Positions 38,226-41,162 of a DNA stretch of 64,000 nt are shown piece after piece. The number at the start of each line of letters is the position of its first letter. The first letter of the stretch is position 1. The position numbers were made by a program, and so were the translations under genes. The DNA lies in the NCBI GenBank assembly GCA_963662405.2, contig CAXXKT010000001.1, positions 1,376,001-1,440,000 on the forward strand, in the 5' to 3' direction. Source of the DNA: Syntrophales bacterium (lineage in GTDB: Bacteria; Desulfobacterota; Syntrophia; Syntrophales; UBA2210). Below the pieces are notes generated by a model, which was not told the origin of the DNA, did no database searches, and saw only the letters and a list, made by a program, of their open reading frames with translations.

Positions 38226-38459
38226 ATGGGATCGGCAGCAATACGGGCCACGGTGTACCTGGACCCGGAATTACATAGAGCTCTTCGTCTGAAGGCGGTT
38301 GAAACATCCCAGTCCTTGTCGAAATTAGTGAATGATGCCATCAAAGAATCCCTGGCTGAAGACGCTGAAGATATTGCAGCCTTTGAGGAAAGAATAAGAG
38401 AGCCCTTAATCAGCTACGAAACGATGATCAAGAGGCTGAAAAAAGATGGCAGAATATGA
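38226..38459 (+). CDS. CopG/RHH-family antitoxin
   Basis: RATVYLDPELHRALRLKA...SLSKLVNDAIKESLAEDAED; overlaps the downstream toxin gene; GGAGG RBS. Confidence 0.82.
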   Translation: MGSAAIRATVYLDPELHRALRLKAVETSQSLSKLVNDAIKESLAEDAEDIAAFEERIREPLISYETMIKRLKKDGRI

Positions 38460-38703
38460 GATTTGTTTCAAAGAGTCCGTTGAAAAAGACTTCCGTGCAA
38501 TCCCCAAAAAAGATTTAAGAAAGATTCTCGATCGCATTGAGGCGCTTTCTCAAGATCCGAGACCACCGGGCCACGAAAAGCTTACAGGGCAAGAGAGATA
38601 TCGTGTTCGCCAGGGGCTGTACCGGATCATCTATTCCATTCAGGATAAAGAGCTTACAATCTGGGTAATAAAGGTAGGACATCGAAAAGATGTTTATCGA
38701 TGA
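38446..38703 (+). CDS. RelE/ParE-family toxin
   Basis: 85 aa with DPRPPGHEKLTG, YRVRQGLYRIIYSI and VIKVGHRKDVYR. Confidence 0.9.
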   Translation: MAEYEICFKESVEKDFRAIPKKDLRKILDRIEALSQDPRPPGHEKLTGQERYRVRQGLYRIIYSIQDKELTIWVIKVGHRKDVYR

Positions 38704-39357: not shown

Positions 39358-39562
39358 CCGAGTTATTTTTGATAGATAGGGAACTAAATAAGATGCAAGT
39401 ATCTCATCCTTTAACTTTGACCAAGTACGTTTTGACGAAAAGAAGTTATAGGTTGCTTTCATATTTCTATAGCAGAACGGTGTTTGGTTGGTTCTATACA
39501 AAAATTCAATTTGTCTATGCTTGAAGTCAATAAGGAGGTCTAAATGTTATCTTAGGTTACGC

Positions 39563-39601
39563 AAAAAAAGCCCCATCTCTCTTTTTAAGAAACAGGGCTT
39601 T
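39563..39601 (-). terminator. intrinsic terminator-like hairpin with no adjacent gene
   Basis: Minus strand AAAGCCC...GGGGCTTTTTTT. Confidence 0.55.
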
Positions 39602-39793
39602 AGATGATCAGACCATAATCCCCCCCCGGTTACAGCTGCTCAAAAGCATAGATAATACGTTCAAGATCAATAATGTACTAAACCACTAACTCCATCATGA
39701 TATATTGTCAAGAGATTTTACCGTGAGACTTTCAATCAGTAATCATCGATTTTCTTCAGGAATTATCCTGAGCAGTTGTAGATACCGTTCTTG

Positions 39794-40762
39794 TCAAGCG
39801 AAAGCTGGTTTATAATTTGGGTCATACTTTTTGCCGGATTTCAGGATTCCAAAGATAAGGTGCACCAGCTTCCTCATTATCGCACAGACAATCACTTTCC
39901 CGTTTTTTCCTTTCTCTTTAAGGCGATTATAAAAAGCAATCATAACGGGATTACATTGGATCGATACCAGTGCCGGCATATACAGAGCTTTTCTGAGCCG
40001 CGCATGTCCGATTTTGCATAACCTGGGTTTGCCTTTAATAGATGATCCTGAAAGTGTTTCCCGTGGCGCAAGCCCGATGAACGCCACCAGTTCCCGCACA
40101 TGACTGAATTTGTCCAGATCATCCAATTCTGCCAGGATGTGAGGAATGGTTGCCGTGCCGATACCTGGAATGGAAGCCAAGAGCCCTTTCTTGTTTTTCA
40201 GGTTCGGATCCCGATCAATTAGATCAGCAATCTGTTCCCTGATTTTCTCTATTTCCTTATCAAGATAGTTAATGTGTTCTCTGATCAATGGAATAACTGA
40301 TTCATGAGCTGCACTTATTCGATTCTTCTCCTGACTTCGCATGTTGATCAGACTGTCAACTCGCCTGACCAACGCCCTCAGGGCTCTGATCTCCGGTGAG
40401 GGTGGACTCCAGGGATCTGGTCTCATAGCCAGACAGAATCTGGCAATCAAGGCTGCATCAATCTTATCCGTCTTGGTGCGAATCAACTCGCTCTGGCCAA
40501 ACCCTTTGATGCGAGCGGGATTGACAACACTGACCACATGGCCGGTTTCATGGAGATAGATCGCCAATTCCTCTCCATAGTTGCCGGTCGCCTCAAGGCA
40601 GGCATGTACCTTATGAACTCCCTGTCTCTCCAGCCAGATCGTCAGTGTCTCAAAACCTTCCACCGTATTTTTGCAGGTTTTGTGTTTTGTCTTCCCCTCT
40701 ACAAGAAGTGCAACGTCGAATTTCTGTTTTGCGATATCTATCCCAAGAACCGATACTGACAT
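39794..40762 (-). CDS. IS110-family bridge recombinase/transposase
   Basis: GIDIAK, LEATG and KTDKIDA (DEDD), SIPGIG, SGSS catalytic serine loop, LRKALYMPA, AIMRKL. Confidence 0.95.
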   Translation of the reverse strand: MSVSVLGIDIAKQKFDVALLVEGKTKHKTCKNTVEGFETLTIWLERQGVHKVHACLEATGNYGEELAIYLHETGHVVSVVNPARIKGFGQSELIRTKTDKIDAALIARFCLAMRPDPWSPPSPEIRALRALVRRVDSLINMRSQEKNRISAAHESVIPLIREHINYLDKEIEKIREQIADLIDRDPNLKNKKGLLASIPGIGTATIPHILAELDDLDKFSHVRELVAFIGLAPRETLSGSSIKGKPRLCKIGHARLRKALYMPALVSIQCNPVMIAFYNRLKEKGKNGKVIVCAIMRKLVHLIFGILKSGKKYDPNYKPAFA

Positions 40763-40809
40763 ACTACAATACTCCCTCGTACATTAATCTAATCTCCAGT
40801 AAAATAGCT

Positions 40810-40990
40810 TCGTTCGAATCAACCTTGCAAGTGCAAACTCATTCCCATCTGAGAAGGTTTATGATACCGTACGAGTTATTGAACAAAGCTGTGGGAAGAG
40901 GATCTACTCTACAAATCATGCTCTCTGGCATCAGGTGAAACACAGATTCACTCTCCCCATTTTACCCCAGTGTCTCAAGATCTCTTATAT
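40810..40990 (-). ncRNA. IS110 bridge RNA (ends approximate)
   Basis: The target loop holds TTTCACCT (40933-40940) and TTGTAG (40909-40914) inside a TGGGGAGAG/CTCTTCCCA stem. The donor loop holds ACGGTATC (40863-40870) and TGCAAG (40824-40829). The target guides match the flanks and the donor guides match the element ends. Confidence 0.82.
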
Positions 40991-41162
40991 CTCCTAATCC
41001 CCTTCTAGAACACAAGGTGAAAAAAATAACGAGTCCGAAGCTTGTTTCGCCGGTGGATATGAGAGAATATATTCGGATGGGCGCGGGACGAAACAACCAG
41101 GTCTTTGTACTTTCTGAAAACCGTGATATGTTGGTTCGGTAAATATTTCAAGGGAGGGTCCT

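Follow-up and report, generated by a model that had tools for sequence, protein, structure and literature searches.

An intact IS621-like IS110 element with a predicted bridge RNA at the edge of an intergenic repeat in a Syntrophales genome

Introduction

IS621 of Escherichia coli (Durrant et al. 2024, PMC11208160; Hiraizumi et al. 2024, PMC11208158) is the closest described system to the element reported here. Both elements carry an RNA with two internal loops in the left end, use a CT core and insert into repeated intergenic sequence, and the recombinase studied here aligns end to end with that of IS621 and has the same catalytic residues. The donor junctions are alike, ACGGTAT-CT-TGTG here versus ACAGTAT-CT-TGTA in IS621. 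The left donor guide has the same form in both (...GTATC-A, the IS621 row of Durrant 2024 Supplementary Data 1 reading ACAGTATC-A), and the right donor guide is the same, with TTGCAAGG at the same place and, in that row, one wobble in IS621 versus two here. The targets differ; the present one is TTTCAC-CT-ACAA, whereas the Supplementary Data 1 rows, as read for this analysis, give ATCGGGC-CT-ACGC for IS621. The present right target guide appears to read four bases past the core, whereas PMC11208160 gives four bases including the core for IS621. Unlike IS621, the present element has a host in the Syntrophales and inserts into a repeat other than a REP element.

The recombinase also matches ISCro4 (PDB 9t56), which belongs to the same bridge-recombinase class. 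ISCro4 and IS622 (Perry et al., preprint 10.1101/2025.05.14.653916) are reported to have been engineered and tested; unlike these and IS621, the present element is known from sequence alone. According to a preprint on ISPpu10, an IS110 element of Pseudomonas putida (10.64898/2026.03.19.712850), all insertions lie in one conserved intergenic sequence with a stem-loop adjoining the guide-matched site. That stem-loop is a GC-rich 5' extension and was tested, whereas the candidate feature of the present target is 3' of the crossover and AT-rich.

The IS1111 subgroup is also part of the IS110 family, and its elements insert site-specifically into repeated elements. They carry a seekRNA in the right end, and some of them target integron attC sites. 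The present RNA lies in the left end upstream of the gene, and therefore the element is not in the IS1111 subgroup; its target is also not attC.

A close relative is already present in the donor and target covariation input of Durrant 2024 Supplementary Data 1, where it and the IS621 rows are aligned in the same frame. In the two rows compared it has the same right-end-to-left-end junction (TTGACAAGAACGGTATCT-TGTGTTCT), stems, left donor guide and right donor guide, with GTTCCACCT as left target guide and TTGTAG as right target guide. This copy is distinct and comes from another genome, and its left end differs in the first 50 nt. The earlier note had called the class known and the ortholog possibly new; the former is correct, but the latter is narrowed by this relative in the supplementary rows. 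As the class was already known in 2024 and one close relative has been published, the element is an additional ortholog and brings no new principle. It is useful as a clean natural example of a bridge-RNA system.

The element is read here, with a probability of about 0.9, as an intact, recently mobile insertion sequence of the IS110 family, IS110 subgroup, closely related to IS621. This reading draws on the observed anatomy, family membership, copy number and common boundaries, and on covariation within the RNA structure and between guides and flanks.

Results and Discussion

Element anatomy and recombinase

The window, which is the whole 64,000-nt stretch of DNA analysed, contains the element on the minus strand. 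Its main parts and immediate flanks, in window positions, are:

41016..39780, minus strand: IS621-like insertion sequence, 1,237 bp
41017..41022, minus strand: left target half (LT), TTTCAC, flanking DNA outside the element (sequence read; other copies)
41015..41016, minus strand: core dinucleotide CT, left copy (sequence read; family alignment)
40763..41014, minus strand: non-coding left end, 252 nt, encoding the predicted bridge RNA (sequence, fold and covariation; a relative's row in Durrant 2024 Supplementary Data 1)
40762..39794, minus strand: gene for the 322-aa recombinase, which combines a RuvC-like DEDD domain with an S238-bearing Tnp domain (open reading frame; domain and structure matches)
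39792..39797, minus strand: outward-facing TTGACA, -35-like, in the right end and overlapping the stop codon (sequence read; putative promoter)
39782..39788, minus strand: left donor half (LD), ACGGTAT, the final bases of the right end (sequence read)
39780..39781, minus strand: core dinucleotide CT, right copy (sequence read)
39776..39779, minus strand: right target half (RT), ACAA, flanking DNA (sequence read; copies)

On the minus strand the left junction reads ...TTTTCAC-CT-TGTGTTC, with CT at 41016-41015, and the right junction reads ...ACGGTAT-CT-ACAAC, with CT at 39781-39780. The right end after the recombinase stop codon is only 12 nt long. Terminal inverted repeats are absent, as the start of the left end (TGTGTTCT) does not match the reverse complement of the right end (ATACCGTT). 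The CT dinucleotide is present at both ends of all five genomic copies and precedes TGTGTTCT in 46/49 family left ends, and ACGGTATCT is found in 41/43 family right ends. On re-reading the sequence, the positions given in the earlier note were confirmed for the four RNA motifs, the two CT junctions and the reading frame. The conserved right flank was considered as a part of the element and rejected, since identical copies differ in the right flank and element-free units exist.

The recombinase frame is intact. The N-terminal RuvC-like DEDD domain matches Pfam PF01548 (1.7e-28), the C-terminal Tnp domain matches PF02371 (1.2e-24), and the NCBIfam model NF033542, "IS110 family RNA-guided transposase", scores 241.8 bits versus a cut-off of 140. 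Residues 5-316 match the IS621 transposase 8wt6 (E 2e-83) and ISCro4 9t56 (E 3e-82). Residues D9, E57, D99 and D102 align with D11, E60, D102 and D105 of IS621, and S238, in the motif LSGSS, aligns with S241, so that S238-G239 corresponds to S241-G242 of IS621. All five catalytic residues therefore align, as expected from the DEDD residues and SGSS serine reported earlier, and the domain, family-model and structure matches agree with the identification as an IS110-family bridge recombinase close to IS621. The protein cluster of the recombinase has six members, none of which is named. The compact size of the recombinase (322 aa) and its relation to the IS621 and ISCro4 proteins make it a candidate for trial as an editing tool.

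Predicted bridge RNA

The predicted RNA features of the left end are:

40893..40958, minus strand: stem-loop 1, target-binding loop, with outer stem GGGGAGAG...CUCUUCCC, an internal loop and an inner AUGC/GCAU hairpin (folds and covariation)
40933..40940, minus strand: left target guide (LTG), UUUCACCU (DNA TTTCACCT), same sense as LT plus core (sequence; flank covariation)
40909..40914, minus strand: right target guide (RTG), UUGUAG, complementary to CT-ACAA (sequence; flank covariation)
40807..40889, minus strand: stem-loop 2, donor-binding loop, with outer stem GCUUUGUUC/GAACGAAGC and an inner UCUC/GGGA hairpin (consensus fold and covariation)
40863..40870, minus strand: left donor guide (LDG), ACGGUAUC (DNA ACGGTATC), reading in the same direction as the final 7 nt of the right end followed by C (sequence)
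40824..40829, minus strand: right donor guide (RDG), UGCAAG, pairing with CT-TGTG through G.T and U.G wobbles (sequence)

Both the single-sequence folds and the family consensus fold place TTTCACCT and TTGTAG facing each other across one internal loop. The second stem-loop has ACGGTATC on its 5' side and TGCAAG on its 3' side. In both loops the 5' side reads like the top-strand sequence of the left half and core, whereas the 3' side complements the core and right half; for the LTG the layout rule is that given in PMC11208160.

Across 36 distinct left ends the consensus fold comprises 41 pairs, and 99.2% of cells are paired. Compensatory changes were observed in 11 pairs versus 2.9 +/- 1.3 in shuffles (0/500 shuffles reach 11), and slid controls gave 0-6. 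Helix 1, in stem-loop 1, has compensatory changes in 6 of its 14 pairs. In stem-loop 2, helix 3 has 9 pairs, of which 2 show compensatory changes and 5 show one-sided G-U changes, and one pair of helix 5 is seen as UG, CG and UA. Helices 4 and 6 of the predicted fold are invariant or vary ambiguously, so that the shape of the donor loop is provisional. The left end thus has two loops with covariation support, in agreement with the IS621-type arrangement of target loop and donor loop that had been proposed from the sequence.

The single-sequence folds of the left end are not stabler than those of shuffles (z-scores of 0.21 and -0.23). A search with the Rfam 15 covariance models gave no match to a bridge-RNA family and three chance-level hits (E 0.34 to 8.7), of which the NsiR1-like hit was rejected as the terminator hairpin of the neighbouring repeat. 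Rfam holds no bridge-RNA family, and the missing match reflects the library and not the element. Of the fold and covariance-model search suggested in the earlier note, the two-loop fold was recovered, but the second part had no bridge-RNA model to search with.

Guides and flanking DNA

To estimate the chance of finding the guides, the 252-nt left end was shuffled 200,000 times at the mononucleotide level. The 8-mer TTTCACCT occurred in 327 shuffles, the 8-mer ACGGTATC in 538, the 6-mer TTGTAG in 26,589 (13%), and the three jointly in one. A second TTGTAG lies at position 246 of the left end, directly before the start codon, and therefore this 6-mer by itself is weak evidence.

Guides and flanks were also compared by permutation across about 40 Syntrophales relatives drawn from 80 of 328 reported; the family members are related and not independent. 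LT and LTG agree at 192 positions versus a shuffled mean of 174.6 (38 distinct pairs), and 3/20,000 shuffles reach this value. The covariation is weak on the right side, where RT and RTG agree at 124 positions versus a shuffled mean of 116.9 (26 pairs; 557/20,000 shuffles). RTG variants are matched by the flank in 6/9 cases at RT+3 and in 2/3 at RT+4. Examples of guides changing together with flanks include TACACCT (L009), TTCATCT (L030 and L040), GTGTCACCT (L035), and GATAAGTAG against CTACTTA(C/T)C (L019 and L021). The fit is poor in some relatives, such as L010, L018 and the right flanks of L008 and L009. Among the copies of the present genome, three of five mismatch the RTG at RT+3, and the LTG mismatches two or three LT positions of L003. 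On the donor side, a G-to-A change in the RDG of L003 and L004 results in an A-T pair, and in L057 the U of the RDG faces an A in the right donor half. The specificity code had been described as fully readable; this is too strong for the right side, given the RT+3 mismatches and the weak covariation.

Genomic copies and target choice

The genome contains five full copies, each with an intact 322-aa reading frame. Two are identical, two others differ from these by the same three substitutions, and one is about 94% identical. All five have the ends CT-TGTGTTCT and GGTAT-CT. The left flanks are TTTCAC/TTTCAC/TAGCAC/CTTCAC/TTTCAC and the right flanks are ACAA/ACAA/ACTA/ACTA/ACTA, which gives a common boundary rule of (T)TCAC/AGCAC-CT-AC(A/T)A. 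The identical copies L001 and L002 differ in their right flanks, and past 6-8 nt the left flanks of the copies are unrelated. The four other copies thus share the boundaries of the present one and sit in related targets. All of the checks suggested in the earlier note that were within reach of computation favored its interpretation. With the five copies and about 40 relatives taken together, the target signal lies at left -5 to -1 and right +1 to +4, and one mismatch at +3 is common.

Five unoccupied TTCACCTAC[AT]A sites are present in the genome, and in four the same right-hand repeat then follows; two of these four are also present in the repeat alignment. The empty target rebuilt in the earlier note is supported by these TTCAC-CT-AC(A/T)A sites in the same repeat family. 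An orthologous empty allele of the present insertion was not found among the 40 relative genomes searched. The left flank is matched in 8/40 of these genomes and well in one only (G014), where the match covers the neighbouring gene only and the intergenic DNA is not homologous to the insertion locus.

The insertion lies at the edge of a multicopy repeat, which is outside the element:

39560..39779, minus strand: target-side repeat unit (repeat alignment)

The upstream region of this unit is conserved and contains GATGATTAC-TGA-TTGAAAG. The unit also has a promoter-like TTGACA, AUG-GUC-UGA preceded by a Shine-Dalgarno sequence, and a terminator hairpin at 39601..39567. Four of the five copies adjoin such a unit, and the preferred target in the present genome is the upstream edge of this multicopy intergenic repeat. 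A profile of the unit has four matches among loci L001-L087, all in the own genome (L001 and L003-L005); from this comparison the full repeat unit appears to be specific to the present genome, with only a short motif shared with relatives.

An element of the same class might have its target set by the guides only in part, with a hairpin and the motif GATTAC-N3-TTGAAAG, 35-55 nt to the right of the crossover, also required. If so, the RNA by itself would not give the whole code, and the requirement would have a parallel in the target stem-loop reported for ISPpu10. All five own right flanks have the motif in some form. Its strict form is found in 13/39 distinct family right flanks versus 0.04 expected from shuffles, a pattern that was chosen post hoc, and most of the remaining flanks have near variants. 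DNA folds of the empty sites show an imperfect hairpin between site and motif, RT mismatches are tolerated, and the ISPpu10 preprint describes a target rule of sequence plus structure. However, a multicopy repeat that holds the guide-matched 11-13 nt would give the same association without any extra recognition. The sole TTCACCTACAA site outside the repeat (C3:37194) is unoccupied, although one site says little. An additional requirement of this kind is therefore possible, with the balance tilting against it.

Proposed mechanism and activity

In the preferred reading of a recently mobile IS621-like element, and by analogy with IS621, a circle whose right and left ends are joined across a single CT would leave the chromosome. 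The junction would set TTGACA 17 nt upstream of a TG-extended -10-like hexamer, from which a bridge RNA of about 175 nt could be transcribed. The first internal loop of this RNA would pair with the target. The second would pair with the donor junction, ACGGUAUC with ACGGTAT-C and UGCAAG with CT-TGTG through wobbles. The DEDD/Ser recombinase would then swap strands at the CT core to give an element with CT on each side.

The idea of a junction promoter follows PMC11208158, and the one proposed here is putative. The hexamer in question, TCTAGA in the left end, is preceded by TGT and is a poor one; the arrangement is kept in relatives with TCTTAT replacing TCTAGA. The four public runs examined consist of contigs, which are uninformative on circles, excision or RNA. 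The contigs stop at 39776-39778 and 41019-41022, breaking at the element ends, and contain neither a right-end-to-left-end joint nor an empty-site joint; public RNA runs gave at most 0.04 of words. Transcription and circle formation are expected by analogy with known systems, and the guides may be reprogrammable for the same reason. Probable activity, as suggested in the earlier note, has one line of evidence in its favor, namely the identical and near-identical copies with intact frames.

The copies could instead be relics of a formerly mobile element that lost its recombinase or RNA expression and persists passively. A simple sigma-70 scan found no minus-strand promoter inside the left end of the chromosomal copy, and the internal TATAAG of the present copy is without the TG that relatives have in TGTTATAAA. 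However, known IS110 elements depend on a promoter found in the circular form alone (PMC11208158), none of the five reading frames is broken, two pairs of copies at separate sites have identical sequences, and the catalytic residues and helices are all kept. It is therefore improbable that the copies are relics. That the guide matches are due to chance or repeat context, and the copies due to segmental duplication and not RNA-guided transposition, is scarcely credible; the frequency of TTGTAG in shuffles, its two occurrences in the left end and the paralogous repeats of the right flanks would fit such an origin, but the joint occurrence of three motifs in 1/200,000 shuffles, the unrelated left flanks, the boundaries that are base-exact in five copies and 46/49 relatives, and the flanks tracked by guide variants would not.

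Left-end fragments and the wider repeat

A tandem left-end fragment that ends at guide-coding DNA is present at two independent loci. An exact pattern for further tandem left-end junctions had 0 matches in metagenomes, and a looser pattern had 12 matches, all unrelated chance matches. The limited literature consulted on self-targeting and tandem IS110 elements holds no description of left-end duplications ending at guide-coding DNA.

One tentative proposal, doubtful as a whole, joins the repeat and the fragments. A repeat of about 75 nt in Syntrophales (guide-matched bases, hairpin and GATTAC-N3-TTGAAAG) would be targeted by RNA pairing plus structure, and the LTG-coding DNA would act as a half-target that recurrently captures the element. 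If true, tandem or solo left-end fragments would be footprints that half-match recombination leaves in nature. The target repeat and the left-end fragments offer natural material on the structural determinants of targets and on half-match recombination shaping IS110 loci. In the present genome the repeat is the upstream edge of a 40-65-copy module (promoter, mini-ORF of start, one codon and stop, and terminator) that lies before many genes and integron attI-like sites. Some of the target repeats in this genome do precede attI-like sites.

Recombinase and element boundaries

In each defining feature that could be tested, the element agrees with the IS621-type bridge-recombinase elements. Its features and those of the adjoining repeat are listed below by window position.

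Features of the element and its right flank
41016 to 39780, minus: element, 1,237 bp, CT at each end
Left junction, minus: TTTTCAC-CT|TGTGTTC
Right junction, minus: ACGGTAT-CT|ACAAC
40958-40893, minus: stem-loop 1; 14-pair outer stem (6 compensatory), internal loop, AUGC/GCAU hairpin
40940-40933, minus: left target guide (LTG), TTTCACCT
40914-40909, minus: right target guide (RTG), TTGTAG
40889-40807, minus: stem-loop 2; 9-pair outer stem and small hairpin (UG, CG or UA at its third position)
40870-40863, minus: left donor guide (LDG), ACGGTATC
40829-40824, minus: right donor guide (RDG), TGCAAG
40762..39794, minus: recombinase reading frame, 322 aa
39797-39792, minus: TTGACA in the right end, overlapping the stop codon
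39560-39779, minus: target-side repeat unit, also at C1:2673146, C1:2644580, C2:288382 and about 60 other places in the genome

The recombinase matches Pfam families PF01548 (1.7e-28) and PF02371 (1.2e-24) and passes the NCBIfam model NF033542, 'IS110 family RNA-guided transposase' (241.8 bits; cut-off 140). Residues 5-316 align with the solved structures of the IS621 transposase (8wt6, E 2e-83) and ISCro4 (9t56, E 3e-82). An earlier note had described the DEDD residues and the SGSS serine as kept, and this holds: D9, E57, D99, D102 and S238-G239 all align with IS621 D11, E60, D102, D105 and S241-G242, which Hiraizumi et al. show to be essential (PMC11208158). The cluster that contains the protein is without a name.

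The genome (3.80 Mb, contigs C1-C3) carries five full copies on the three contigs searched. Two are identical, another two have three substitutions in common, and one is 1,238 bp long with about 94% identity; the 322-aa frame is intact in all of them. The copies bear out the boundaries of the earlier note, each starting with CT|TGTGTTCT and finishing with GGTAT|CT. Their left flanks end in TTTCAC, TTTCAC, TAGCAC, CTTCAC and TTTCAC and their right flanks start with ACAA, ACAA, ACTA, ACTA and ACTA; beyond these bases the left flanks are unrelated. There are five unoccupied TTCACCTAC[AT]A sites in the genome (2.8 expected by composition), four of which run on into the repeat found right of the element, and the right flanks differ between the two identical copies. 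Together, the shared ends, empty sites and differing flanks fix CT|AC as the right boundary and show that the conserved right flank belongs to the target rather than to the element. Among the 40 relatives searched, none had an orthologous empty allele of this particular insertion.

Scanning species-representative genomes gave 328 relatives, 80 of which were kept. About 45 of those kept have a protein identity of 75-90%, in assemblies named Syntrophaceae, Smithella, Syntrophus or 'delta proteobacterium'. Of 49 extracted left ends, 46 have a recognisable left junction; the other three (loci L012, L015, L034) are rearranged or unalignable. The junction is readable in 43 of 49 right-end stretches, and ACGGTATCT terminates 41 of these. 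Both covariation input files of Durrant et al. 2024 already contain a close relative; its junction, stems, LDG and RDG are the same and its LTG is GTTCCACCT. The element may already be among the orthologs listed in bioRxiv preprints, such as those from the IS622/ISCro4 screen. The genome also has nine identical-scoring copies of a second, unrelated IS110-family element (e.g. C1:387975-389006; 25% protein identity) and two partial matches (33% identity).

Predicted bridge RNA structure and guides

All four guide-like stretches are at the exact positions given in the earlier note. When the 252-nt left end was shuffled 200,000 times, 327 shuffles contained the first 8-mer, 538 the second and 26,589 the 6-mer; both 8-mers and the 6-mer occurred together once. 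TTGTAG by itself proves little since it recurs in the left end near the start codon.

With z-scores of 0.21 and -0.23, single-sequence folds of the left end are no more stable than those of shuffles. In these folds TTTCACCT and TTGTAG nevertheless face each other across one internal loop, in agreement with the earlier claim. Aligning 36 distinct left ends gives a consensus fold of 41 pairs, with 99.2% of cells paired. Compensatory changes occur in 11 pairs, compared with 2.9 +/- 1.3 in shuffles (0 of 500 as high) and 0-6 in slid controls. Two more predicted helices within stem-loop 2 are invariant or vary ambiguously; therefore, the detailed shape given for the donor loop is tentative. Rfam holds no matching family for a bridge-RNA covariance-model check.

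The element fits the guide layout rule stated by Durrant et al. (PMC11208160) on all four arms, with the RDG pairing through G.T and U.G wobbles. The IS621 rows in Supplementary Data 1 of that study have an LDG of like form, ACAGTATC followed by A rather than T, and an identical TTGCAAGG at the RDG place; both oddities are therefore family traits. In a two-copy sublineage (L003 and L004), an RDG G-to-A change makes the G.T wobble into A-T, and in L057 the right donor half has an A facing the RDG U. At the sequence level, this natural donor-guide variation agrees with pairing. Among variants of the left donor half or the LDG, a wobble pair is kept in L008, L040 and L057, but not in L031.

Target pairing was assessed by matching each member's guides with its own flanks and then permuting the flanks among members. 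Excluded from the left target (LT) comparison were L002, L023 and L024, where the flank duplicates the element's own left end, and the unparseable L012, L015 and L034. The 38 distinct LT pairs gave 192 matches (shuffled mean 174.6; 3 of 20,000 shuffles as high), and 26 distinct right target (RT) pairs gave 124 (116.9; 557 of 20,000), figures that overstate independence because the sequences are related. The flank matches the variant guide letter at LT-4 in 6/9 cases, LT-3 in 1/1, LT-1 in 2/2, RT+3 in 6/9 and RT+4 in 2/3. L010 and L018 fit poorly, as do the L008 and L009 right flanks.

Possible junction promoter

In the circular form, the right-end TTGACA would lie 17 nt ahead of TCTAGA, itself preceded by TGT. 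The arrangement resembles the junction promoter described for IS621 (PMC11208158), but the hexamer is weak; relatives have TCTTAT in place of TCTAGA. A simple scan of the chromosomal left end found no minus-strand promoter. About 25 nt into the left end, relatives have TGTTATAAA and this copy has GATATAAG. Among public runs, only contigs cover the stretch well; these stop at the element ends and contain neither a circle nor an empty-site junction, a result that counts neither for nor against either form.

Left-end fragments

Since LTG-coding DNA necessarily reads as the core preceded by the left half of a target, every copy has a half-target built in. Directly upstream of the genomic copy L002 (C1:165350-165269), the 82 bp of left-end positions 1-82 are duplicated exactly, and the end of the duplicate is the guide-coding TTTCAC-CT. 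The same architecture is found independently at one locus in two assemblies (L023/L024), where the element has about 77% identity with the present one. Thus, a tandem left-end duplicate ending at LTG-coding DNA occurs in two independent element lineages. The L002 duplicate could instead have come from slippage between 8-bp repeats; at L023/L024 only five contiguous bases are common to the genomic flank and the guide-coding DNA, and slippage is less likely there than at L002. The Xie et al. preprint reports half-match insertion and donor-only excision by IS621, and the Hu et al. preprint reports tandem non-coding repeat units adjoining IS110 transposases. Two metagenome pattern scans gave no more tandem cases. 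A diverged solo left-end fragment (L007, C1:761866-761951; 71% identical) has a proper TTCAC-CT|TGTGTTCT junction, ends near guide-coding DNA and is not followed by a recombinase gene.

Target repeat

The right flank is one member of a repeat family that has 65 profile matches in the genome, and such a unit adjoins four of the five copies. Insertion is at the unit's upstream edge, about 75 nt ahead of the -35, and leaves the unit intact. About 40 repeat copies contain a promoter-like TTGACA-17-TAGAGT. Next comes a predicted transcript, about 110 nt long, that carries a conserved GGAGGGGATTATGGTCTGATCATC, which is a Shine-Dalgarno sequence (GGAGG) and a mini-ORF of AUG, a single codon and UGA. 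A strong terminator hairpin comes after this mini-ORF stretch, and there is a conserved region upstream of the promoter-like part as well. The 3' end is retained in 52 units; diverse sequences come next, often a gene start, and in six units an attI-like ...ATAAACATTGTTRRRY. The module is not in Rfam; it could represent a leader, attenuator or small-RNA family specific to the lineage.

Relatives' loci in other genomes lack the full unit. Their right flanks (many Syntrophales genomes, L008-L084) have in common [GC]ATTA[CT]-N3-5-TTGAAA, 35-55 nt from the crossover. The strict pattern, picked after seeing the data, is in 13 of 39 distinct right flanks compared with 0.04 in shuffles, and most of the others have near variants. 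Paralogous right flanks diverge right after the motif, and by folding, empty sites form an imperfect hairpin between site and motif. Insertion at a repeat edge and the common flank motif therefore suggest that the family targets a conserved repeat of about 75 nt. A contribution of the target repeat to recognition beyond the guides is reported for ISPpu10 and is a possibility for this family.

Several left flanks in the family have AGAATTATTTnTTACAC in common. At C3:390686 (minus), a repeat copy is preceded by ...GTACGGTATCT|ACAA, the element's last nine right-end bases, without an element; these bases could mark the footprint of a deletion. Several units, e.g. at C1:2642376, C1:1831202 and C2:335851, are followed by a further repeated palindromic element (GTATTATACAATTTCTGTATAATAC...CTCATAAAT). 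An 85-aa reading frame about 850 nt from the repeat unit (38446-38703, plus strand) looks by eye like a RelE/ParE-type toxin.
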